From Thraustochytrium aureum (Eukaryota), in the NCBI GenBank assembly GCA_012862495.1, contig BLSG01000115.1, positions 61,508 through 81,507 on the forward strand: DNA of 20,000 nucleotides. The letters run 5' to 3'. The translations under genes were made by a program, and so were the position numbers. Of this stretch, positions 1 to 19,310 are shown in pieces. How positions within the stretch are numbered: position 1 is the stretch's first letter; each line of letters begins with the position of its first letter. Under the pieces are notes generated by a model. That model was not told the origin of the DNA and ran no database searches. It worked only from the letters and a program-made list of their open reading frames with translations.

Positions 1-1330
1 ACAGCGTCAGCAACCGTCCAGGCCTCGCGTGGAATCAGCCTCTCGCCGCCAGGGATGCAGACTGGACTGAACAGCTCGCTCGTCGCGCTCGCAGCTAGGC
101 GTGCAGCGGCGCGCCCCAGAGGACAGACCAGCGCAGGAACGGCCGCCGTAGCGCCCTGCAAGGCGCCTTGCTCGCTGTTGCTTTCCTCGCCAGACTCGGC
201 CCAGTCACTTGCCTCCTGCAGCAAGTGTCCTGCGGTGCCCTTCGCAGGCCGTTGGCCTTCAGTTTCCGCGCTGAGCGCCGCCTGGCACTTGGCCGCGAGC
301 TCGCCGCACCTCTTGTATACGAGGATCGCGCTCTGCTCGGCCGCCGTCGGGTCAGGATCGTGCGTCTGAGCGACGCACCCGAAGGATCCAGGCGTCGCAA
401 AGAGGCCTTGCATGGGGCCGCAGGGGCGAGACAGCACAAGTGCTTGCGCTCTGGCCCGGCTGCGTCTTGTGGGTGCCGCCGGCACGCCTTGCCAGTTGAC
501 CCGTCAAAGGCCTGGCCGCACCTCGCACAGCGGAACAGCTGGTTGACGCCCCAAAACGCCCACAGGAGATGCTCCCACGCAAGCCGGTGGTCGCGCCGCG
601 CAGGCACAATAAATGTGTCGACCAAGTCCCAACGCGCTTGCGGAACGTGCGCTCTGCGAAGCCTGCCCCGAAAGTCCACGGCCGGCTTGGCCGCGCCACA
701 CTGTAGAACGCTCTCCCACTTCCGGTTGTACATCCGCCGGCACAATTGGCAGCTGGCCAGGCTGCCGTCTATGTGCTCCAAAAGCTCCTCTAGCTTGGCT
801 CTGCAAAGGCGTCCCAGAATCTTATCTGAAGGGTCCACGACGTCGGCCAGCGCCTCGGGTGACAGGCCATCCGCTATGAGGCGCAGTAGGTCGTCCTCAA
901 TGCAGGCCAGATCGATGGGGAGCGACACGATCTCGTTCAGGCGGGACCCGACGAACTGCGCGGCTTGGGGGACCAGGTGCCGCATGCCCAAAAAGTTGGA
1001 CGCGATCAGTACGGAGACGGCAGACCGCGGCTTGAGGTCTGGCTTTCGGTCTGGCTCGCGGACGTACATCATGAGCATGTCGAAGATGTGCACGTCGCAG
1101 TGCACTGAGATGTCCACCTTGTGCAGGTCCTCGAGGTAGCTCGCAAAGTACGACATGTGCTGCACGAGCACGTCCTTGGCGCAGGAAAAGTCGCGCGTGA
1201 TCCCGCGCAGCTCGTCACGGACGTGAATCACAATCTGCTTGCTTCGCCGTGCGGAGCCGGCGACCGGCGACCGCGCAGGCGACTTTGGGTTCTTCGCTTT
1301 CACGGCGCCCGGTCGCAACTGGCTGGCCAT
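1..1330 (-). CDS. SANBR: SANBR/KIAA1841-like (DUF3342, SANT/BTB) protein; probable frameshift at ~380-430 and 3' end beyond the window
   Basis: From the ATG at 1330 (MASQLRPG...) the frame reads IVIHVRDE..RDFSC.KDVLVQHMSYF, VDISVHCDVHIFDMLMMYV, SVLIASNFLGM and Cys/His clusters (CQLC, CARC, CRRHP, LCC), which I recognise as KIAA1841-type. After LCC the ORF-track frame becomes Arg/Ser-rich, while another frame reads FGCVAQTHDPDP... and stays open to base 1. Confidence 0.85.
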
Positions 1331-2091
1331 CGATGCCGCGGGCTGCCTGCTAGCGTCTTTCAAGGTGTTGCTCAGAGGCGATGCCGACTGCTCGGGCAGG
1401 GGCGTTCTCGCGGTGGCGGCCTGGTTGGCGTTGGTGTCGTCGCCGCGTTCACTTTGGGCTTGCTGGCCGCCAGCGGCCTCGGCTCGGGCTCGCTGCGCTT
1501 CGCGAAGCCTCCGGCGCGGCTCGCTCTCCGCCCACTGTTGCTGCTCGTTCTGGCGTGGTGGCCTGGAGGTCGTTGACCCAGAGAGCCATTGCCGTTGCTG
1601 GAGGATGGTGCCTGCTCGCACCACTTCACCACCGCGTATTGGCATTCCCCGCCGTGATGGCGCCGCTCGCAGCCGCCGTCGCGCGTGGCAGGCAGCGCGC
1701 CCGCCGGCGCTGCAGCTCCAGCGTCTGCGTTGCCTGGGACAGTTGCTCTGTTGTTGCAAGTGAGTAGTACTCAGTACCGGTGGTGGCAACAATTTCTCTA
1801 TGCCGCTCGTCGATCAATCGAACTTGGAAAAAAGCCTCCCGCGGCCCGCGAACCAGGCCAGGAGGCGAGCCCGCAGCTCTCACCGAGGCGCGCGGTGGGC
1901 GGTCCGCGTCGGAGCAAGGGCGCGGGAAACCCACGTTCGAGAGCTGAAAATGAGACATTTTTCCGTTTAGGGTCTTGCGAGAGACGGCCCAAGGCCGCCA
2001 GCACACTGACCGTCAGCCAGGCGCGTCTAGCTGGCAACGCAGCCGAGCTCTGCCCAAAGCAGCGCAGAAGANNNNNNNNNNNNNNNNNNNN

Positions 2092-7537: not shown

Positions 7538-9022
7538 TCAGGGGCTCGGCGCGCGCTGAGCGAGGTACTCGGTAAAGCGCTCCACAGCGTGCCAAGTCGA
7601 CTGCGCGCACGCTGAGGAGACATGGCAGTCGCAGTCGTGCGAGCCGTGAACCGGCACCAGCGCGTGTGGGACGCCACGCGAGTCGAGCTCTTCCTGCAAC
7701 CACAGCGCCTGGTCCAGAAACACAAGAGGGTCCTCGTAACCGTGGATCAATAGCGTCGGGGGCAACGGACGCCCCCCCGCCTCGCTCTCCGGCCGAGTGG
7801 CGTGGAAAATGGGCGAAAGCTCCTCGAAGCACGCCTCCTCGGTCACGGACGCCGGGCGGTGCATGCAGACATGCCGCGTCAGAGACACCCACGCCCTCGA
7901 GTGCATTCCCGCAAACGTCCAAGCACTCTCGGCACGGCGTTCAAGCGCCGACGCCCGCAGCTCGGTGACGCCGTAGTGCGAGATAACGCCGACGACAGAA
8001 GCTGGCCTGTACTTGAACGCCGCGTTGAGTGCCAAGTTGCCGCCCGCCGAAGTGCCCCAGGGAATGATGTGCGCGCCGTCGCCGCCCCAGCTGGCGGCGT
8101 GCTCCTCAACGAAAGCGATTGCGTCGCGGATGTCGTCGACCATCTCGCGCGGGTCAGACCCCGCGCAGCTAAGCCTGTACGAGACGCTGACGATCATGAA
8201 GCCCTTCTCCAAGAGCTTGTGAGGCATGCCGCCGTGGTAGTTGATGCGGATAAACGAGCGGTCGCCCTTTTTCCAGCCCCCTCCGTGGATGTGGAGCACG
8301 ATAGGCAGGTTTGCCCCCGCCACAGTCCCAGGAGGCCGATAAACGTCCAAGTCGAGGATGCCACGCAGAATAGCGGCCCGGTTTTGCAAAAAGAACGAGT
8401 CGCCGGGCAGTCCCGGCATGTCCTCGGCGTCGCAAGTGCTCGCGTTCGGGTCCATCTTGACAGTTTTGTACGTTGTGGTGATGTCGGGCTCGATGGGGCG
8501 CAGCCCGCCATGTGCGTTGAAAACGTGATCTGCGAGCGAGTACGCGCTCTGCCCACTCTCAAAGTGGCCAGGGTCGCGACTAGCGAGCGGAAAAGCCGCC
8601 TGCAGACGCGCGCTGGCCTCCAGGCCGGCCAGGTGGGCTGCCCAGCCCCTCGCGGCCCAAGCAGCGGGCGAAATAACAAACATCGCCAAGCTCAGAAAAC
8701 GCGCGAGGCGGCTGCCCGGCCCGTGACTTGGCCAAAGCACCTCGCGCTGCAGGCCCCCGACAGCCAGCAGCGTCAGCAGCGCAGCAGCCCATGTTGCTGG
8801 GGTCGAGTCGCCGTCGAAAAAGTGGCCCACGGCGCCGTACCAGGTCGGCGTATACACCTGAACAAACCTTGGCACCGCGAACGAAACAAAGTACGTGACA
8901 GGCTGCCTCGGAAGAGACCACAGCGCGTCAAAGAGCACGATCCGGACGACCAGGGCCCACCCGAACAGCCGGTGCGCCACGACCGCGAGCGCAGGCGGGC
9001 GCTCACGGCCTCTTCCCTCCAT
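7538..9022 (-). CDS. Membrane-anchored alpha/beta-hydrolase (HSL/BD-FAE-like carboxylesterase), 494 aa
   Basis: Several hydrophobic N-terminal segments, then LDVYRP, oxyanion motif HIHGGGWKKGDR, VSVSYRL, nucleophile elbow GTSAGG, acid motif LLIHGYEDPLV and His motif GSH. First ATG at 9022. Confidence 0.9.
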   Translation of the reverse strand: MEGRGRERPPALAVVAHRLFGWALVVRIVLFDALWSLPRQPVTYFVSFAVPRFVQVYTPTWYGAVGHFFDGDSTPATWAAALLTLLAVGGLQREVLWPSHGPGSRLARFLSLAMFVISPAAWAARGWAAHLAGLEASARLQAAFPLASRDPGHFESGQSAYSLADHVFNAHGGLRPIEPDITTTYKTVKMDPNASTCDAEDMPGLPGDSFFLQNRAAILRGILDLDVYRPPGTVAGANLPIVLHIHGGGWKKGDRSFIRINYHGGMPHKLLEKGFMIVSVSYRLSCAGSDPREMVDDIRDAIAFVEEHAASWGGDGAHIIPWGTSAGGNLALNAAFKYRPASVVGVISHYGVTELRASALERRAESAWTFAGMHSRAWVSLTRHVCMHRPASVTEEACFEELSPIFHATRPESEAGGRPLPPTLLIHGYEDPLVFLDQALWLQEELDSRGVPHALVPVHGSHDCDCHVSSACAQSTWHAVERFTEYLAQRAPSP

Positions 9023-9555: not shown

Positions 9556-10503
9556 TTAGATGACGTTGTAGACGCGGATCTTGCTGTCAGAGTAGCCGGC
9601 AAAGAGCGTCGAGCCGTCGGCGCTCCAGGCGAGCGAGCAGACGAAGGGCGGCAGGTAGCGCTTGCCGGTCTGCTGGTCGTCCTCGGACTCGAGCTTGATG
9701 TCGGCGACCGTGACCTTGGACTCGAGGTCCCAGATCTTGATCGAGCCGCCGGCAGCGGCGCAGAGCCAGTAGCGGTTGGGCGAAAACACGAGGGCGTGGA
9801 TGATCTCGCCGGCCTCGAGCTTGTAGAGCAGCTTGCTCTCGCTCAGGTCCCAGAGCATGGCGACGCCGTCCTTGCCGCCCGAAGCGCACAGGGAGCCGTC
9901 CGGGCTGACGGTGACCGAGTTGAGGTAGCCGTCGTGGCCGATGAGGTTGGCCCGAAGCTTGCAGTTCGAGAGGTTCCAGACCTTGACGAGCTTGTCCCAG
10001 CCGCACGACACGATCAGCGGGTTGGTGGTCGAGGGCGAGAAGCGCACGCACGAGACCCACTCGGTGTGCTGGTCGTCGGTGATGGTAAACTTGCACTCGC
10101 CGAGGGTGTTCCAGAGCTTGATGGTGCGGTCGCGGCCACCCGAAACGATCTGGCGGTTGTCCGGGCTGAAGGCCACGGAGAGGACGTCCTTCTTGTGGCC
10201 CACAAAGCGGCGGGTCGTGGCGCCGGTGTTGAGGTCCCACAGGCGCAGGGTGCTGTCCCACGAGCACGACAGGGCAAACTGGCCATCGCTCGAGATGACG
10301 ACATCCTCCACAAAGTGGTGGTGGCCGGTCAGCGCGCGGCGCGCAAACCCGCAGGCCTCATCATGGGTGAGCGCCCAGATGATGCACGACTTGTCGCGGC
10401 TCGCGGACAGGATCATGTCCGGGTTTTCCGCGGTCGTCGCGAGCGCCGTGACCCAGCCCTCATGGCCCTCAAGCACGCCGCGAAGCGTAAGCTGCTCGCC
10501 CAT
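9556..10503 (-). CDS. RACK1: Receptor for activated C kinase 1 (WD40 beta-propeller, 40S-associated), 315 aa
   Basis: [95 protein letters not shown] and [11 protein letters not shown] are unmistakable RACK1 motifs. No coding introns. Confidence 0.99.
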
Positions 10504-10805: not shown

Positions 10806-11159
10806 TGCGAATGCGCAGTTGTTCGCTCTGTTCTTTGCGTGGGGAGAACCCCGTTTGTTCGCTCTTTGGCGTCTGTGGTTTTGTTCGTTTGTTCGCTCGT
10901 TCGCGTCTGTGGGTTTGTTCGTTTGTTCGTTGATTGGTTTTGGTGAGAGAAGAGCGCCGCCTTGTGTTCCGTCACGGTTGTTGCATGTGTTGTGCGGTCG
11001 TGGTCGCGGTGGTCGTGGTCTTGTCGGGAACCTGCCACTGCGTGCGCTTGGTCTTGCCTTCGTGGAGTGGCTTGTCGGAATGGCGAATGACTTGGTCGTG
11101 CTGTCGTTGCCAGCTTGTCGCCGCTCGAAGGCCTTGGCCCGTCCATCTTCGCGGAATGG

Positions 11160-11283
11160 CTTGCTACGGTCTCAAGTCAGCTTCTGCTGCATTGTGCTTG
11201 CCACGGTCTCAAGACAGCTTCTGCTGCATTGTGCTTGCCACGCTCCCAAGACAGCTTCCTTCTGCTGCATTGTTCTTGCTACG
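11160..11283. repeat. 37-bp minisatellite, about 3.3 copies
   Basis: Unit cttgc(t/c)acggtctcaag(t/a)cagcttctgctgcattgtg starts at 11160, 11197 and 11234; the third copy has a 4-nt insertion. Confidence 0.9.
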
Positions 11284-11374
11284 AGTTGTCGCTTCGTTCG
11301 GTCCGCCATCAAAGATCATTTGGGATGACGGAGGCAAGCGAGAGGCGAGGCCAACGAAAATGCAGTGAATAAAA

Positions 11375-14300
11375 TTAGTACTTGCTTATTGTTGCGCGCA
11401 AGTCGACGCCCTGCTCGCAATAACCGTCGCCAAGAGCGCGGCAGTCGATGCTGCCAGGGTTGATGCCTTGCACAAACATCTTGTGCAGCACCGAATAAAA
11501 CGGGCTCCCATTCCCCGCGTCGACGTACCAGTGACTGTCCACGCCAATGTTGCAGTGGTAATCGCCCGGACCGATCAGGTGAAGCAGGTTGGTCAGGTTG
11601 CCCGGCATGTACTGGTCGTACAAGTCGTTCATCGCCGTATTCCACGCCACCTTGTCCTCCGACTTGACGATGGATCCCTCCCCGAGCTTTTGCGCCTTGA
11701 GGAAAAACGCCTGATTCCAGTCGTACGCGCTCGAAAACTGCGACCAGGTCGTGTTCGGGAACCGTGTCGCCGCCCAGCGGTACAGGAGCGGCAGAGTGAG
11801 CTCGGCAGCGTCGAGCGGCACTGTGGGCCAGTCGTCGGGCACGACAAAGAACGGGAACGCCCCCGCCTCGAGGACCTGCCACGCCGGGAACGAGTCGGCA
11901 AGAAAGTCGCTCGAGATCACGCCGAGACCCGCATCCGCCATCTGCACCACCGCAGTGGACGTGCCCTCGTATAGGTTGGACAGGTGAGCGCCCCACACGA
12001 GGGAGCCGTACGCACCCGCACTGCACCCGGTCACGAGCACGCGCGGCGGGCGCGGAATCTCTGCCTTGAGGTACTCGAAAGCGCTCCCAGCGTTAATTGC
12101 GCCACGATGCCGGATTCGCAAATTCTCCGTGTACTGCACCGTCGAGTTGCCCCAGTGCAAGTCTGCCGAGCAGTATGGCACGAAAACGTGCGTGAAGGCT
12201 GCGTACGGGCCGTTCTCGTCCTGCAGCCCGGCGGCACGGTCCGAACCCTCGATCACGCGCCGAAACGCCGCGCGGGTGTCCTCCACAGTGTCCTTGAAAG
12301 TCTGCGAGGCCCGCTGACAAGTCCGGTCGTTCCAGCACGCACCACCGCCCTCGAGTTCAAAGATCATGGGCGACCCTGGCGCACCCTTGCGTATGAAGAA
12401 CGCGTACGGAGTGCCGCGCGCACAGAGCGTCTCGCCGCCCGGACGCATCTCGACCCACTTGCCCTGCTGCAGAGAATCCCACGCTGGCATGTTGACGGTG
12501 TCGTCGTACTCGACCACGTTGGCGTCCTCGGCCTCCTCCTTGGCCTTTTCGTCGTCGACCTGGCCTGAGCGAACAACCCAGGAAACCACGCTTGCCGCGA
12601 CCACGAGCACCATGAAGAGGACGTACAGGAGGGCCGCCTTGCGAACGCTCGCCGGCGACCGGGCTTTGATGCTGTCGCTGAGGCTAGAGTCCATCCCAGC
12701 GCCAAGCACGCGCTTTTGCTTTGCGGCGTCCTCCCCCTCCTCGTCGGCGCTCTCGCCATCTGACGCCGACACTGCGCCTTCCATCTCACGTTTCAGGTAC
12801 TGCGGCACGCACACGTTTCCAGCGCGGCCCTCCGGCCCAAAGACGCTAAGCAGAGCCGGAAAGAAGAGCGCAGCGAAGGCAAACGCCGTCACGACCGCGA
12901 CGACCATGATGCGGCCAAACTTGCTGAAGAAAATGATCGTGGTAAACAGCAGGAAGACGGTGGAGAGAAGCGTCGTGAAGGCGCCCGCCAAGATCGAGGT
13001 GCCCAGTGTCGTCAGCGCGTGCTCGACGCGCTCTTCGCGCCCTTGGATGCCGCGGTCGAATTGGGCGTCGCTGTAACCCACTGCAATGTGGAGGCTAAAG
13101 TCGATCCCCACCCCGATGACGAGCACAAGGAGGACGGACTCGATGCTGCCCAGCTTGAATCCGTAGAGCACGATGCCAGCCACGACCACGACCACGACGA
13201 GCAGGATGGTGATGCTCAGCAACAGCGCAACCCGCCAGTTGCGCGTCGCCACGGTGGCCACGGCCATAACGAGAACGAGGCTGAGCACAATGGAGGACAC
13301 TGCGTTGACGACGAAGAGGAACTGGGTGCGCTGCCACACAAAGTAGATAAAGTCTGTGTAGAAGGCCTCGCCAAGCGAGTCGGGTTGCTCGGCGTTGACT
13401 TGGGCCGCGAAAGCGTCCCAGGCCTCGAGCACGTCACTCCGCTTGCCGAAGGGGTCGTCCTCGCTTATGTTGGCCACAAACTCTTGGACGGCAAACTTGA
13501 CGCGCAGCCGCTTGTCCGCTCCGCGCTCGAGCCCGACGCTTGCATAGTAGTCAAAGCCAAAGTTGGGGCGCCCGAGAAACTCCACCAGCGAGTCTTCGAA
13601 GGTCTCTGCGATTGACCCCGCCGGCACTGTTATGTTGTCGATCGTGACCGCAGCCGCTGAAGGAGGCGCAGCCCGCGGCACTGGGAAGGACTCGTTCCGG
13701 GCCTCCCGCCAGAGCGCAAAGGCCGCCATAAAGCACTGGCCCACTTCCCCGTCGTCCAGTTTCGTGCTGAGGAAGAGGCGCTCGCTGTTCTCCTCGACCG
13801 CCTTGTAGCACACATCGCGAAGGTAGAGCTGCGCGCGCTCGTCGGCCAGGTCGAAGCCGTCCGCGCTCATGAAGATCGGCTTGCCAAAGTCAAAGTCGCG
13901 CGTCTCCTTGGTATCAGCGCGGTCGATCATCGGGTCTTGCAGGCCCCAGACCATCTTGATCGACTCCGAGTTGGTGTCCGACTTTTTGAACGAGTCGAAG
14001 AGATTGTTGAGCGCGATCCCGAAGAAGTGATCGTCCTCCCAGAAGCTGAGCGCCTTCTCGGCGAGTTCGAGCTGCGCAGCCAGGGCGATCGCGGCGACGA
14101 TCACCGCGCCAAACACCGCCAAGATGGTGAGCCGTCCCTTCTTGTTGTTGATCACCTTGCGCGCGACGACGTCGCGGAAAAAGGTCTCGGTCTTCGAGCC
14201 GGCCGCCTCCCCAATGTCGTCCTCGAGCCCGGGGAGCTCTTGCGGACTCTCCGCCAGCGCGGCCGCGTCCGAGCGCGGGATCCACCGCTTGCCCTCGCCA

Positions 14301-15631
14301 AAGTAGCGGCCCCAGATTACGAGCGCTGGCAAGTACATCGCGCACACCAGGAAGAAGTTGACGAAGAGCAGCAGAGCAGTAAAGATTCCAAAGTAGCGCA
14401 CGACAGGGATGATCGAGGTCGCGAGCATGAGAAACGCGAAACCGGTGGTGATGGTCGTGCTCGCCATCGTGTAAGCGGCGCGGTGAAAGGCCCAGGCCAG
14501 GCGGCGCTCCAGCGACCAGCCTGGGCCGCGCAAGAAGCGGCGGCTCTGGAAGAACGCATCCGACATGATGAACACGTCGTCGGCGCCGATGCCGAGCAGC
14601 AGGTAGAGCGAGATGATGTTGAGCCCGCCGAAGAGCTCGATCCCGAAAACAACGCGATAGATGAAAAAGCAGACCGGGAAACTGAGCAAGACCTGAAACA
14701 GCGCCACGAGGGCCAGGAACGGCGAACCGAGGTGCAAAAGCATCACCAGCAGGACGGCCGCAAGACTGCCGCCCGCGTACACGATGTCGTTGCCCAGGAT
14801 GACCAGAACCTCGGCGTCAAAGACCGCGCTCTGGTAAAAGGTGACCACCATCTCGCTTGGGTCTTCCTGGAACTTGTCCCGCGCTGCCTTGAGAAGATCG
14901 AAGGAGGACGGTTGGCCGTCTTTGCCGCCGTCCAGCATCCACTCGAGCACCGCGTCGCGCTGCTCGTCAGACCTGTCGTCCACGTTGAGGTAGCCGGGCA
15001 GCGGCAGCCCGAGCCGCAAGCTGGTGCGTGTCATCCGGCACTTGACGTTGGTCACGTTGTCAAACTCGAGGGGAAAGTGCACAAGCGTGCCGTCTTTCTC
15101 GGCGTCGCGGTCGAGCCACATGGCCTGCAGCGCTGCGCGCATCTCCTCGTCAGTTTTCGCGTTGCGGACGTAGCGGAGCGGGGAGAGCAGCACGGCGCAG
15201 TCGCCGCTGTCGACGTCAAACAGGCAGTGGTCCTTGTACCCGGAAACGCTGATGAGCTTGTCCTCCAGGGCGGCCATCTTGGCCACGTTGGCCACGGTGA
15301 ACACGTTGTCGCTGCCTTCTTCGGCGACGTAGAGGATCATCAGCGTGTTGGCCTCGGCGGTTTGCTCGGTCACGCGCTGGTTGTTGGCGTCTCCCGAGTC
15401 GGGCCGAAGCTCGTCGAGGGACATGTACCAGGCGTCCGCGCGCTCGGCCGCGATGTCATCGCGGATGCGCAGCCCCACGAGCGGGTTGTCCAAGTTGAAA
15501 AATCCGAGGCTCAGGTACGAGCACACGACGGCCACAGCGAACGTGGTACCAATCGTCAGAAACGGAAACTTGACGCTCACGGCCACAGGCCAGGGCGTCG
15601 TCCGCAGTTGGCTCTTGCCGTCCTCGCTCAT
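11375..15631 (-). CDS. Dispatched/Patched-family RND (sterol-sensing domain) transporter fused to a C-terminal Notum/pectin acetylesterase-like hydrolase, 1418 aa
   Basis: Two 1+5 TM repeats, each with a large loop. TM4 LLGIGADDVF and TM10 IGVGIDFSLH are present, along with TMASTTITTGFAF, IRY-like VRYFGIF and LFFPALLSVFGP. An acidic linker and an extra hydrophobic helix (ALLYVLFMVLVVAASVVSWVV) follow, then PAE motifs CARGTPYAFF, LEGGGACW, FVPYCSADLHWG, VTGCSAGAYG, ADAG, SAYD and YHC. Single uninterrupted ORF. Confidence 0.9.
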   Translation of the reverse strand: MSEDGKSQLRTTPWPVAVSVKFPFLTIGTTFAVAVVCSYLSLGFFNLDNPLVGLRIRDDIAAERADAWYMSLDELRPDSGDANNQRVTEQTAEANTLMILYVAEEGSDNVFTVANVAKMAALEDKLISVSGYKDHCLFDVDSGDCAVLLSPLRYVRNAKTDEEMRAALQAMWLDRDAEKDGTLVHFPLEFDNVTNVKCRMTRTSLRLGLPLPGYLNVDDRSDEQRDAVLEWMLDGGKDGQPSSFDLLKAARDKFQEDPSEMVVTFYQSAVFDAEVLVILGNDIVYAGGSLAAVLLVMLLHLGSPFLALVALFQVLLSFPVCFFIYRVVFGIELFGGLNIISLYLLLGIGADDVFIMSDAFFQSRRFLRGPGWSLERRLAWAFHRAAYTMASTTITTGFAFLMLATSIIPVVRYFGIFTALLLFVNFFLVCAMYLPALVIWGRYFGEGKRWIPRSDAAALAESPQELPGLEDDIGEAAGSKTETFFRDVVARKVINNKKGRLTILAVFGAVIVAAIALAAQLELAEKALSFWEDDHFFGIALNNLFDSFKKSDTNSESIKMVWGLQDPMIDRADTKETRDFDFGKPIFMSADGFDLADERAQLYLRDVCYKAVEENSERLFLSTKLDDGEVGQCFMAAFALWREARNESFPVPRAAPPSAAAVTIDNITVPAGSIAETFEDSLVEFLGRPNFGFDYYASVGLERGADKRLRVKFAVQEFVANISEDDPFGKRSDVLEAWDAFAAQVNAEQPDSLGEAFYTDFIYFVWQRTQFLFVVNAVSSIVLSLVLVMAVATVATRNWRVALLLSITILLVVVVVVAGIVLYGFKLGSIESVLLVLVIGVGIDFSLHIAVGYSDAQFDRGIQGREERVEHALTTLGTSILAGAFTTLLSTVFLLFTTIIFFSKFGRIMVVAVVTAFAFAALFFPALLSVFGPEGRAGNVCVPQYLKREMEGAVSASDGESADEEGEDAAKQKRVLGAGMDSSLSDSIKARSPASVRKAALLYVLFMVLVVAASVVSWVVRSGQVDDEKAKEEAEDANVVEYDDTVNMPAWDSLQQGKWVEMRPGGETLCARGTPYAFFIRKGAPGSPMIFELEGGGACWNDRTCQRASQTFKDTVEDTRAAFRRVIEGSDRAAGLQDENGPYAAFTHVFVPYCSADLHWGNSTVQYTENLRIRHRGAINAGSAFEYLKAEIPRPPRVLVTGCSAGAYGSLVWGAHLSNLYEGTSTAVVQMADAGLGVISSDFLADSFPAWQVLEAGAFPFFVVPDDWPTVPLDAAELTLPLLYRWAATRFPNTTWSQFSSAYDWNQAFFLKAQKLGEGSIVKSEDKVAWNTAMNDLYDQYMPGNLTNLLHLIGPGDYHCNIGVDSHWYVDAGNGSPFYSVLHKMFVQGINPGSIDCRALGDGYCEQGVDLRATISKY

Positions 15632-16785
15632 TCCTCCTTTTCCTTTGCAAGCGCGCTCCTCCTCTGCTCTTCGTCAGAAGGCGCGCCGTGTTCGGCGGCA
15701 CTCGGGCTTGCGCCGGCCTCGCCACCGCTGCCAGCGACTGGGCGACTGGGGTCTGCCACGTCCCGCAGCTCCGCAAGATGCCAACTCCTGTTGAACTCGG
15801 TGGCATTCTCGTCGTGCACACCGACCAGCCACAAGGCCGAACGAATTCCAACTCGATGATCCCGAGCAGCAGGAAACAACGGCAAGCGCACACGCCTCCG
15901 CCGGCCAGCCGCTCGCTGCGATGGACGCCGAGGAAGGAACGACGCTGTGCCTTGCTCATGCCAAGGAGGATGCCTTGCTCATGGGTCCTGTGGCTCGGGA
16001 ATGGGCCTGGCCTCGAGGCGGATCCTGGACCCGGCAGCCCAAAACCACCCNNNNNNNNNNNNNNNNNNNNNNNNNNNNNNNNNNNNNNNNNNNNNNNNNN
16101 NNNNNNNNNNNNNNNNNNNNNNNNNNNNNNNNNNNNNNNNNNNNNNNNNNNNNNNNNNNNNNNNNNNNNNNNNNNNNNNNNNNNNNNNNNNNNNNNNNNN
16201 NNNNNNNNNNNNNNNNNNNNNNNNNNNNNNNNNNNNNNNNNNNNNNNNNNNCTCGTAAGGCTCTTGAGTCAAGGACGTGCGGAGTCAAGGACGCGCAGAA
16301 GCATGTTCGCGCGAGGGCGTGCCGCGTTCGGTCGAGGCGACCGCCGCAAACAGATTGCGCTGCGGCCGTTCGAACTAGTTGCTCCGTGCACGCTGTCGAG
16401 CAGTCGCTGCGCTCGTCGTGGGCCACCTCGCGTGCGTGCTCGCGAAGCTCTGGACGCTGTCGTGCTCGGGACGGACTGCGAGCTCCGAGACCGTGGCGTC
16501 TGCGAGCATGGCGTCTAGCAGCATGGCGTCTGCGCGCATGTCGTCTTTCGGCGCGTCGCTGGGCCTCCTGCAGGTCGAGCACTTGCAGGCGTACGAGATG
16601 GTGCCGCTGTGCACGATGAGCGCAGGTCGAGCTGGCGTGGACTCGAGGATCCGTCGCTTGACAGCATGGGATGGACGAACGACGGAGCTCTTCAAGCGCA
16701 AGATCGGCCGCAGTGCTACACGGCGGCTTGCTCGGCGTTGCAACGTTGGCAGCTCGTTGGCATGTGTTTCCCGCGAGCTGGCTCA

Positions 16786-19310
16786 ATGGCACGGCGCGGC
16801 GCCAGGGCCCGCTGCGCGGCTTGCAGGACCCTTGCCGCAGGCGTCGTCCTGCTGGGGTTGGTCGCGGCGTCCGCCGAAAGCTTGGGTGAAGGGCCGCGCG
16901 AGTGCGGCGGCGCGGGGAACGCTGTTGCCTGGGAAAACTGCGCCTTTGACGGGGCGCCGTCAAGCGAATGGGACGTGAACGGGGCCGGCGACCCCGAAAT
17001 CGTCGGGTTCGCAACCTCGATGAGCTATGCTCCTGGAGAACACGTGGAGCTCAAGGTGCGGACCGTGAGCGACAAGTACCGCGTGGATGTTTACCGCCTC
17101 GGGTGGTACCAGGGCCACGGCGCGAGGCTGGTCGGGACTTCAAGGCCGCACGTTCCGCTCCCCCAGGCTCAGCCGCCGTGTCTCGAGCGCAACGACACCC
17201 TTCTGTACGACTGCGGCACATGGGCGACGAGCGCGACTTGGCAGGTCCGCAGAATGCAACTTCGGGCGTGTACGTGGCTCGCCTGACACGGGAAGACTCG
17301 CTCGAGCCGCGGCCCATCGGTGCCGCGTGGCGCGTCGACTACAGCCAGGTCGGGCTGGACGCCAAGTTCCAGCGCCCGGGCCTGGACACGGAGCCAGGCC
17401 TCGGCGAAGAGTGGCCCCACAGCTACGGCGCGCATAAGCGCAGTCAAGGCGCGGGCCGCGGCCTCCGCAACGCGCTTCGCGAGCCGCGCGCGAGCCACGT
17501 GTACTTTGTTGTGCGAGACTTGGCCTCGCGCTCCGCGGTGCTCTTCCAGACCAGCGACACGACCTGGCAGGCGTACAATCGATTTGGAGGCAGCAGCACT
17601 TATGGGAGCTACAAGCCGGCCGAGCCGCGGCGGCGGTGCTTCGAGTCGAGCTACAACCGCCCCTTCGAGAACCGAGACTACAGGACCATCAACATCATCT
17701 TCGGGGCCGAGCTGCCGGCCATCCGGTTTCTCGAGCGCAACGGCTTTGACGTGTCGTACTTTAGCAGCATCGACACGCACCTGTACGGCGGCGAGCTGCT
17801 TCGCAACCACGACGTGTTCCTCTCCGTCGGCCACGACGAGTATTGGAGCGGCCAGCAACGCGCCAACGTCGAGCGTGCGCGCGACAGCGGCGTACACCTC
17901 ATGTTCTGGTCAGGCAACCAAGTTTTCTGGCGCGTCCGGTGGGAGCCGTCCCCAACAGAGCAGAGCGCGCAAGGCGGTGCCGGGGCCGGCGGTGGCGAGC
18001 AAGGGCGCAGTCGCCGGCCGAAGCCGGAGCCGCGCACCATGGTCTGCTACAAGGACACGCAAGAATCCACGAAGCTCGACCCGCACCCGCACGAGTGGAC
18101 TGGCACGTTCCGGGACAGCCGCGCCATCAACCCCCTCGGCGCGCAGCCGAAAACNGCCTGAGCGGCTTGCTCTTCACGGTCAACGCGTGGCGCAACGACC
18201 CGCTCATCGTGCCGAGGCGATTCAGCCGCGCGCCGATCTGGGCCAGCACCGAGGTGGCCGCACTGGCTGCGCAGCCTGCCTTTCGCGCCGCGTCCGAATA
18301 CACGCACCTCGGAACACAGCCCGTTTTACGGCTCGGCTGCGCTGGTCGAGCCTTGGCGTGTTTTGAAGCAAGGCATCTTGGGCCACGAGTGGGACAGTGA
18401 CGTCAACAACGGGTTTCGGCCTGCGGGTCTGGTTCGGCTCAGCGAGACGCTGGTTGACAATGTGATGCACATCCAGGACAGTGGCTCGGTGTACGACACC
18501 TCTTCCGCGGTGCACCACCTCGTTTTGCATCGCGCGCGCAAATGTGACGCGAGGCCCCCGGGCGAAGAGGCGGGCGAATGCAATGCGGTGGAGACGGGGG
18601 GGTCGAGCTCTGTCGAGCGCTGCCGTTGTGGAGCCGGCGATGCGGCTCGGCAGGGCGCCCTGGTCTTTGGCGCTGGCACGGTGCAGTGGGCTTGGGGCCT
18701 GGACCCAATGCACGACAACGAGCATGGTCTGCTCTCGCAGGACCAGAATAGGTACGACACGCGCGTGGGCTTCGACCTGACCGGCCCCGACCGGGATGTC
18801 CAGCAAGTGACTATCAACCTGTTCGCCATGATGGGCGTTGTGCCAAGTGCATTGGAGCCGGGCCTTTCGCCAGGGTCTCCGCTCCCCGCCGAGGACGCTG
18901 TGAGCAGCGGTGGAAAGTGCCACGCCGAGCCGGGGCCCCGCGGGCAGCTGAGGGTTCGCGTGGACGGCGTTCCGCCGCACCAGGTCGTGCTTGGAGTCGA
19001 GGTCCAAGAACGCTCTCAAGGCGACGCGCGCTGGCACCCGGCCGAGCACGACTTGGAGCTTTACGCAGAGGTCTTTAAAAAGCAGGGCGTGGCGGCTGGT
19101 CCGATCGAGGACGTTAAAAAGCAGGGCGTGGCGGCTGGTCCGATCGAGGACGTAGACCCAGCCTTTGGTCGCCGTTGGGTGGTGCAATGGCCGTCGCCTG
19201 GCGTTGGCGAGTTTTGGTGTCGGTTCTCAGGCGGCGCGATTGTCCTGTCTGCCGAGTCAGGGCCCTTCTCGGTTGACCCGCAGTCGCCGCCGAGCTCCTC
19301 CACAGGTTGA
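16786..19310 (+). CDS. Probably secreted N,N-dimethylformamidase beta-subunit-like protein of bacterial type; three apparent frameshifts (~17247, ~18150, ~18320)
   Basis: Signal-peptide-like N-terminus from the ATG at 16786. Motifs continue across four frame segments: NAVAWEN..G.P.SEWDVNGAGD..IVGFAT, VYRLGWYQGHGAR, SGVYVARL, FVVRD, LFQTSDTTWQAYN.FGG, SYNRPF, RFLERNGFDVSY, FLSVGHDEYWS, SGNQVFWRVRWE, LGHEWD, GALVFGAGTVQWAWGLD, QQVTINLFAMMGV.P. Confidence 0.82.
19075..19153 (+). repeat. Perfect 39-bp in-frame tandem duplication (KKQGVAAGPIEDV twice)
   Basis: ttaaaaagcagggcgtggcggctggtccgatcgaggacg occurs at 19075 and again at 19114. Confidence 0.95.

Follow-up and report, generated by a model that had tools for sequence, protein, structure and literature searches.

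The described proteins closest to the one reported here are transporters of the RND fold with a sterol-sensing domain (SSD), namely Dispatched, Patched and NPC1, and hydrolases of the pectin acetylesterase (PAE)/Notum type. In NPC1, a further helix carries an additional lumenal domain. Nine Na+-ligand positions of DISP1 are defined in the accessible part of bioRxiv 10.1101/2020.09.05.284026, and single-celled eukaryotes, according to the accessible part of PMC9222137, lack canonical Hedgehog signaling, their Patched/Dispatched homologues being noted there as unstudied. Among the hydrolases, Notum has a hydrophobic pocket of about 380 cubic angstroms for a C16 acyl chain (PMC8172013, in part). 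In plants and oomycetes, PAE-family enzymes carry the annotation of carbohydrate acetylesterases, and secreted CE13 enzymes are described for oomycetes in the accessible sections of PMC4176579.

Architecture of the fused protein

Both types of protein are joined in the window, by which we mean the entire 20,000 nucleotide stretch of Thraustochytrium aureum DNA that was analysed. A Dispatched-like RND transporter is followed by a 13th transmembrane (TM) helix and then by a PAE/Notum-fold esterase, in one frame with zero internal stops, and the fused transporter and esterase is one conserved membrane protein. Its features are as follows.

11375..15631, minus strand: single intronless ORF, 1418 aa (Pfam; tiling by contigs of run X1; full-length colinear homologs)
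15506..15562, minus strand: TM1, aa 24-42 (hydropathy; model)
14786..15499, minus strand: ectodomain 1, aa 45-282, with conserved C136/C145 (model; alignment motifs)
14303..14785, minus strand: TM2-6, the sterol-sensing domain, aa 283-443 (Pfam PF12349/PF02460; model)
14576..14593, minus strand: GIGADD in TM4; D351/D352 correspond to the DISP1 Na+ ligands D571/D572
14444..14458, minus strand: TM5 T392, T393, T395 and T396, corresponding to DISP1 T610, S611, T613 and T614
14075..14143, minus strand: TM7, aa 497-519 (hydropathy; model)
13346..14074, minus strand: ectodomain 2, aa 520-762, with conserved C608/C633 and three N-glycosylation sequons
12839..13345, minus strand: TM8-12, aa 763-931 (Pfam; model)
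13097..13114, minus strand: GVGIDF, within TM8-12; D844 corresponds to DISP1 D1049
12656..12811, minus strand: acidic linker, predicted cytosolic, aa 941-992, with a basic patch at its end (low-confidence model)
12572..12628, minus strand: 13th TM helix, aa 1002-1020 (hydropathy; model; fusion alignment)
11378..12496, minus strand: PAE/Notum-fold alpha/beta-hydrolase, aa 1046-1418, with three sequons and conserved cysteines (Pfam; model)
12332..12349, minus strand: oxyanion loop GGGACW (Notum GGWYCF)
12014..12028, minus strand: nucleophile elbow GCSAG, Ser1204
11711..11731, minus strand: SAYDWNQ, catalytic Asp1304
11552..11566, minus strand: GDYHC, catalytic His1359

All Pfam matches lie above their curated cut-offs: Sterol-sensing (PF12349) at aa 305-440 (E 1.4e-19), Patched (PF02460) at aa 304-439 (E 2.7e-14), MMPL at aa 781-934 (E 1e-9) and PAE (PF03283) at aa 1068-1236 (E 1.7e-18; 67.3 bits against a cut-off of 26.6). 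Hydropathy and the structure model give 12 TM helices, in a twofold 1+5 repeat, and two large ectodomains. A first-pass annotation of this DNA had described an uninterrupted ORF of this length, a 12-TM RND/sterol-sensing core with GIGADD and GVGIDF at the positions listed, an acidic linker and a 13th hydrophobic helix, in what appeared to be a eukaryote; Pfam, which finds every one of the Patched, MMPL, SSD and PAE domains it had named, together with hydropathy and the model of aa 1-1033, bears out this description, and the eukaryotic host is supported. Its hydrolase assignment likewise stands on fold, Pfam and an intact triad, the domain being, at about 373 aa, slightly longer than the approximately 350 aa first given.

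In the model of aa 1-1033, the linker has a pLDDT below 50 over most of aa 949-984, helix 13 extends over aa 993-1032 (pLDDT 93-96), and the linkers on either side of TM13 are flexible. All 15 aligned fusions have a hydrophobic helix ahead of the esterase, and TM13 with basic residues upstream recurs among them; by prediction, TM13 puts the esterase on the exoplasmic side.

Integrity of the fusion

Two separate genes in the transcripts, or a misassembly at the linker, had been named at the outset as grounds against the fusion. Contigs of X1, a probable RNA run (X1, X3 and X4, from one study, are called RNA by guess), tile the ORF, and one of them, covering 12441-14283, crosses TM7-12, the linker and TM13 with no joint; a joint or indel at the linker is absent from all six sequencing runs, and 24 of the 26 variants tested are silent. 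Indel errors do occur elsewhere in the window's assembly (17246, 18146 and 18324), but that two adjacent genes were joined here through misassembly or read-through is practically impossible given the frame without a stop, the X1 contig that bridges the linker and an even GC3 along the ORF (0.81-0.85), and it is refuted because conserved homologs, at least 17 further fused proteins from NCBI, EukProt, JGI, ENA and Logan, are colinear with the query from end to end. One low-depth contig of X4 skips 393 bases; the ends of this gap are not of the splice type, and it was not read as an isoform.

The transporter half is Dispatched-like

Dispatched is the best match of the RND model (Foldseek E 2e-32; Z 44.6, rmsd 5.8 over 788) and also the closer relative in sequence (phmmer E 2.6e-39; 138 bits for DISP1 versus 69 for NPC1). 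DISP1 (PDB 7rph, 6tbu) shares the 12-TM RND fold, the two ectodomains and all nine Na+-ligand positions, although identity is only about 20%, and the query protein lacks a furin-type site and carries TM13 and the esterase in addition. The furin-type motif R-x-K/R-R ahead of TM2 was found in none of 17 fusions by a motif test. The TM4 GxxxDD, the TM10 GxxxD and the six hydroxyl ligands are complete in the query (P0001; nine of nine), TM8-12 also holding the invariant H848 and T886/T887 (DISP1 T1087/T1088), and the nine positions are Asp or Ser/Thr in 18 of 18 fusions. Since they are equally conserved in 113 unfused relatives, they indicate a working transporter and not its coupling to the esterase.

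NPC1/NCR1 and Patched share the SSD-RND fold (Z 37-40.5), and the NPC1-family and PTCH1 structures lie just behind Dispatched (Z 39-40.5), so that the direction of transport is unreadable from the fold. The protein falls outside the curated NCBIfam Patched/NPC1 families (TIGR00918, 67.8 versus 1120; TIGR00917, 65.5 versus 1016), and the extra domain of NPC1 is N-terminal and non-catalytic, unlike the C-terminal esterase. The RND half belongs to the unfused Dispatched-like proteins, which form a large family.

The esterase half and its stand-alone kin

The top fold match of the esterase model (pLDDT 92.9) is Notum, at Z 30.7 and an rmsd of 3.4 over 319, with the next family at Z 13.6. The Ser1204-Asp1304-His1359 triad, which sits in the GxSxG, xxDxxQ and HC motifs, is intact and its residues are invariant in all 118 aligned rows. 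Notum (PDB 4uzk, 4uyz) shares the fold, the Ser-Asp-His triad, a glycine-rich oxyanion loop and the predicted exoplasmic site; however, structural identity is 16%, and Notum is secreted whereas the query esterase is membrane-tethered to a transporter. The Notum G126-G127-W128 loop with its pocket-mouth Trp is absent from the query, which reads GGG: W128 and the following Tyr are replaced by G and A, and Notum GGWYC is thus GGGAC, as it is in bacterial proteins. The plant and oomycete CE13 pectin acetylesterases belong to the same Pfam family and have the GCSxG, xxDxxQ and HC motifs in common with the query (PMC5465549, in part), but they are soluble and secreted, and the plant GGxWC motif reads GGGAC in the query. 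An oomycete cluster matches the esterase at 0.96 in the Atlas, where leads for the whole protein are all below 0.9.

Bacterial and oomycete PAE-family proteins are closer to the query esterase than Notum is. It reaches 195-230 bits with stand-alone members of the family, most of them bacterial, but only 29 bits with Notum, and the nearest kin sampled, at 35-41% identity, are mostly myxobacterial lipoprotein-like enzymes. The bacterial PF03283 'pectin acetylesterase-family hydrolases' (Sorangium, other Myxococcota, Bdellovibrionales, Vicinamibacteria) are 32-41% identical over most of the domain and share its GGGACW, GCSAG and HC motifs, but stand alone; in esterase trees built from top hits only, with a long-branch outgroup and without plant, animal or oomycete rows, they are sister to, or surround, the fused clade. 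With this sampling we make no case for transfer of the esterase from bacteria to eukaryotes. The first-pass annotation had also suggested that the fusion would connect relatives of the Hedgehog and Wnt pathways, a link left without support by these bit scores, the replaced oxyanion loop, and an RND half that has no furin-type site and comes from a large unfused family.

A lipobox occurs in 67 of 115 stand-alone kin (shuffled mean 15.5), suggesting that this type of enzyme often works tethered to the outer face of a membrane. An RND gene was found beside the esterase at none of 80 genome loci and none of 67 metagenome loci that have the esterase only; flanks were at most 6-8 kb, many of them shorter, and the RND profile used, which had no bacterial MMPL positive control, matched 10 fusion loci. 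RND proteins were absent among the 29 of 37 multi-TM non-fusion neighbours examined with Pfam. The bacterial neighbourhoods thus give no operon support. Clustering of neighbours at 54 of the 80 loci gave Sorangium synteny, and the other larger clusters are putatively the esterase and its shadow frames. No relative was found on viral contigs, and plasmids gave five weak matches.

Fused relatives and their origin

A separate tree for the RND half, which the first-pass annotation had suggested, places the 18 fusions in one clade (support 99) with no unfused member, among 113 unfused relatives and without a named animal DISP1 sequence; IQ-TREE on 14 fusions gives the clade a support of 100. The nearest named relative is from Hondaea. 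Members of the clade are only about 30% identical to one another, and the identities of the RND and esterase halves co-vary (Spearman 0.77 over 66 non-independent pairs). Of the 17 fusions that extend as far as the motif, 12 have an intact triad, and five have lost the catalytic serine and kept their ion sites, suggesting that catalysis is dispensable in some lineages.

Another Dispatched-like protein, P0049, holds a PAE domain inside ectodomain 2. It lies apart from the main clade in all trees and is possibly a second, independent fusion; a single origin is not rejected (AU p 0.28 and 0.24). In P0015, a related PAE domain is fused to a rhomboid-like membrane domain. Database names for the fused proteins reflect one half only, and searches of the open full-text literature gave no paper describing the fused architecture.

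A possible lift-and-cut machine and its alternatives

Functional coupling of the two halves, as first suggested, is reasonable to suppose. Tentatively, and with slightly less than even confidence, we propose a machine, powered by Na+, in which an acylated lipid is lifted from the membrane and cut on the outer face of the cell, the substrate, direction and coupling of the machine being what we infer from the comparisons above. TM13 would set the esterase outside the cytosol, next to both ectodomains. By analogy with DISP1 and PTCH1, Na+ entering by way of the aspartate sites in TM4 and TM10 may power the extraction of an ester-linked lipid from the membrane toward the ectodomains, and the tethered esterase would hydrolyse the exposed ester and free the cargo. 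Candidates for that lipid are acylated lipids, sterol esters and the acyl anchors that hold glycans or proteins at the surface; the serine-less paralogs may hold cargo without cutting it. Neither a Wnt nor a Hedgehog protein is a likely substrate, and the conserved Na+ sites point to export rather than import. More doubtful is an extended version in which Na+-powered lift-and-cut of lipid-anchored protist cargo arose twice, by C-terminal fusion and by insertion into ectodomain 2, with the serine-less paralogs as built-in lipid acceptors.

On that reading, a single chain would do the work that in animals is split between Dispatched with SCUBE2, on the one hand, and Notum, on the other. The fused enzyme offers a handle on the cargo of protist Dispatched-like transporters: identifying the ester that the domain cuts would reveal which class of cargo a member from outside the animals carries, and would bear on whether the family was already extracting and releasing acylated molecules before there was a Hedgehog. 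Thraustochytrids are culturable and studied for their lipids, which makes testing practical.

Rather unlikely is the converse, in which the esterase, occupying the place of the N-terminal sterol-binding domain of NPC1, would split lipid esters, be they sterol, wax or acyl esters, that come from outside the cell or lie in food vacuoles, and the RND half would then load the product into the membrane. Hondaea is an osmotrophic thraustochytrid, which counts in favour of such import, as do the nearly tied NPC1/NCR1 structures (Z 39.5-40.5), the serine-less paralogs, which suit binding and hand-off, and a tie between oomycete sterol acquisition and sterol-sensing proteins (PMC12223298, in part). DISP1 is nevertheless closer than NPC1 in both sequence and fold, and the complete DISP1-type ion sites suggest outward, cation-driven work.

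It is also unlikely that the halves are co-located without coupling, the esterase deacetylating surface glycans or acting as a general esterase, with the transporter as a mere anchor and trafficking signal. The flexible linkers around TM13, the bacterial esterase genes without RND neighbours, the rhomboid-like fusion P0015 and the secreted CE13 enzymes of oomycetes (PMC4176579, in part; the Atlas cluster) would fit such an arrangement. Against it, the fusion clade has no split member despite identities of about 30%, five fusions retain the domain after losing the serine, and P0049 holds it within ectodomain 2.

Mycobacterial MmpL3 and antigen 85 are a precedent for export followed by transfer, in which an acyl donor exported by the RND half would pass its acyl group, by way of the hydrolase-fold domain, to an acceptor at the surface. 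An acyl-enzyme intermediate is compatible with the topology and with Ser-Asp-His chemistry, and both mycobacterial proteins are among the fold matches, though simply as general fold mates; Notum itself hydrolyses (PMC8172013, in part), and with antigen 85 at Z 13.1 versus Notum at 30.7, a transferase role is very unlikely.

A conserved RND-esterase fusion

Both halves of P0001, the 1418-aa protein of the window, are of known kinds, and joined in one conserved protist family they constitute an undescribed variant: our literature search, at hit-list level for most records, found no description of an RND plus esterase architecture. Excerpts of a review (PMC9222137) describe protist PTCH homologues as unstudied and canonical Hedgehog signalling as missing from single-celled eukaryotes. 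P0001 is encoded by a single open frame (11375-15631, minus strand), in which Pfam bears out the RND and PAE domains read there in the first-pass annotation; the GIGADD and GVGIDF motifs also lie where it had placed them.

Pfam domains of the 1418-aa frame, all over cut-off
aa 305-440: sterol-sensing domain
within the frame: Patched domain
aa 781-934: MMPL domain
aa 1068-1236: PAE domain

The fusion is real. The window stretch is found in six sequencing runs from four studies. All six lack an RNA label in their records, three runs of one study being RNA by guess. Contigs of X1, a guessed-RNA run, overlap over 11354-12382, 12353-12468 and 12441-14283, and further X1 contigs extend to 15742. Reads over 12400-12900 had been suggested as a check of the linker; the 12441-14283 contig, which spans TM7-12, the linker, TM13 and the start of the esterase, is continuous there, with no joint or indel found. 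The three guessed-RNA runs have zero cover in bins 10906-11339 and 16114-16547, whereas every one of the 30 bins is covered in X2, a DNA-like run. Silent changes account for 24 of the 26 variant positions listed within the frame, whose three parts all have GC3 values of 0.81-0.85. One low-depth contig of X4, also RNA by guess, omits 393 bases in frame at 14197-14591 with non-splice ends, probably an artefact.

Transporter and esterase halves

The closest match to the predicted model of aa 1-1033 (pLDDT 88.3) is Dispatched (E 2e-32; Z 44.6, rmsd 5.8 over 788); NCR1, NPC1 and PTCH1 follow at Z 39-40.5. Nine Na+ ligands of DISP1 are named in the text seen of 10.1101/2020.09.05.284026, and all nine positions are kept as Asp or Ser/Thr in 18/18 C-terminal fusions. 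Unlike DISP1, none of 17 fusions searched for the motif has an R-x-K/R-R furin-type site upstream of TM2. Together, these results suggest that this half works in the manner of a Dispatched-type cation-driven transporter, though it is not necessarily a DISP1 orthologue.

The esterase model (pLDDT 92.9) adopts the fold of Notum (Z 30.7, rmsd 3.4 over 319), the next-best family reaching 13.6. Ser1204, Asp1304 and His1359 lie in PAE/Notum motifs, as given in excerpts on PAEs (PMC5465549) and Notum (PMC8172013), and are invariant across 118 aligned rows; the proposed PAE/Notum-fold hydrolase is supported. The GGWYC of Notum is GGGAC here. Three fragments clustering with the fusions rank first; the closest proteins behind them are stand-alone PF03283 proteins (32-40% identity). 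Judged by record title, most of the best 80 among 445 genome loci belong to Myxococcota, the remainder including Bdellovibrionales and Vicinamibacteria, and a lipobox-like start occurs in 67 of 115 stand-alone proteins (shuffled mean 15.5). An oomycete cluster in the Atlas (0.96 for the esterase) indicates that the subfamily is present unfused in stramenopiles.

Past TM12 the chain continues through a linker modelled at low confidence and a basic patch into a 13th helix, which recurrently precedes the esterase among the fusions. Both termini of RND proteins are usually cytosolic, so with TM13 the esterase is predicted to lie outside, beside the ectodomains; its three sequons and conserved cysteines are compatible with this placement.

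Distribution and history of the fusion

The nearest named relatives are GBG25719.1 from Hondaea fermentalgiana (esterase identity 51%) and CAK9008135.1 (55%), filed as Durusdinium trenchii on a 6.1-kb contig and suspected to be a contaminant. The database names of these two NCBI records each reflect a single half, one being 'dispatched homolog 1' and the other 'pectin acetylesterase 3'. A long-protein search with the esterase region gave 15 matches: ten with both Pfam sets, one partial fusion (by sequence) and four of a different type (one with a rhomboid match). The best 150 of 10,078 matches in a representative library added P0040-43, P0045-48, P0050 and P0049. Both halves are encoded at 10 of 78 metagenome loci, where adjacent genes are of eukaryotic type, a VPS13-like gene (under the Pfam cut-off) among them; one esterase-only locus, ending at a contig edge, lies near eIF-1A.

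The gene model of P0003 (GBG25719.1) seems to be without part of the TM8-9 region and continues into about 1000 unrelated residues; it is probably mis-joined. P0013-P0016 (about 815-860 aa, one from MMETSP) begin with a PAE domain and carry a membrane domain towards the C terminus, with a Pfam rhomboid match in P0015, and are a different kind of PAE and membrane-protein fusion.

Separate phylogenies of the halves, as had been proposed, were built. Among 132 RND halves, the unfused relatives being top matches only, the 18 C-terminal fusions fall together in a single clade (99) that contains no unfused protein; IQ-TREE with 14 of them gives 100. In the full esterase tree 23 of 24 fusion rows group at 95, long-branched P0050 falling outside, and in the reduced tree 16/16 group at 99. 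Pairwise identities of the two halves co-vary. A single old fusion is the simplest reading. P0049, an ENA protein of 2456 aa from one metagenome record, is a Dispatched-like RND whose ectodomain 2 holds an inserted, intact PAE domain as well as FN3-like repeats. It falls outside the 18-fusion clade in both trees and is possibly a second, independent fusion; AU tests do not reject one clade with the main fusions (p 0.28 and 0.24).

GCSAG is retained in 12 of 17 fusions. In P0040-43 and P0050 the catalytic Ser has been lost, whereas Asp, His and every ion site remain; in P0040-43 the Ser and Asp motifs are separated by an insert of about 130-190 residues. Fragment P0141 likewise keeps Asp and His without the nucleophile Ser; the large insert of P0040-43 and P0141 is sequon-rich. 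P0042 and P0043 may be linked paralogs, since both list a longest contig of 125,724.

A possible mechanism

We tentatively favour a lift-and-cut machine, in which Na+ influx would drive an ester-linked lipid outward, toward the ectodomains, where the tethered esterase would then cleave it. This reading draws on the ion sites of DISP1 type, the predicted topology, a fusion that stays unbroken and the persistence of esterase domains that have lost the serine. Against it, almost all of the 113 unfused relatives likewise have Asp or Ser/Thr at the nine ion positions, and no linkage of bacterial esterase genes to an RND gene was found at 80 genome loci. Cutting followed by import is a weaker contender, anchoring of the esterase without coupling is slightly less probable again, and acyl transfer is improbable.

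Neighbouring genes

RACK1, the neighbour of the fusion frame, indicates a eukaryotic host. This host is putatively thraustochytrid-like.

Other genes of the window
9556-10500, minus strand: RACK1 gene
95-1645, minus strand: SANBR-type BTB-domain gene
7538-9022, minus strand: second esterase, BD-FAE/hormone-sensitive-lipase type, with an N-terminal hydrophobic region
16666-19310, plus strand: DMFA2_C (N,N-dimethylformamidase beta-like) gene

The second esterase lies about 2.3 kb downstream of the fusion frame on the same strand, past RACK1. The DMFA2_C gene is apparently broken into three frames; these splits are probably assembly errors, since contigs of several runs differ there by single-base indels (17246, 18146 and 18324).
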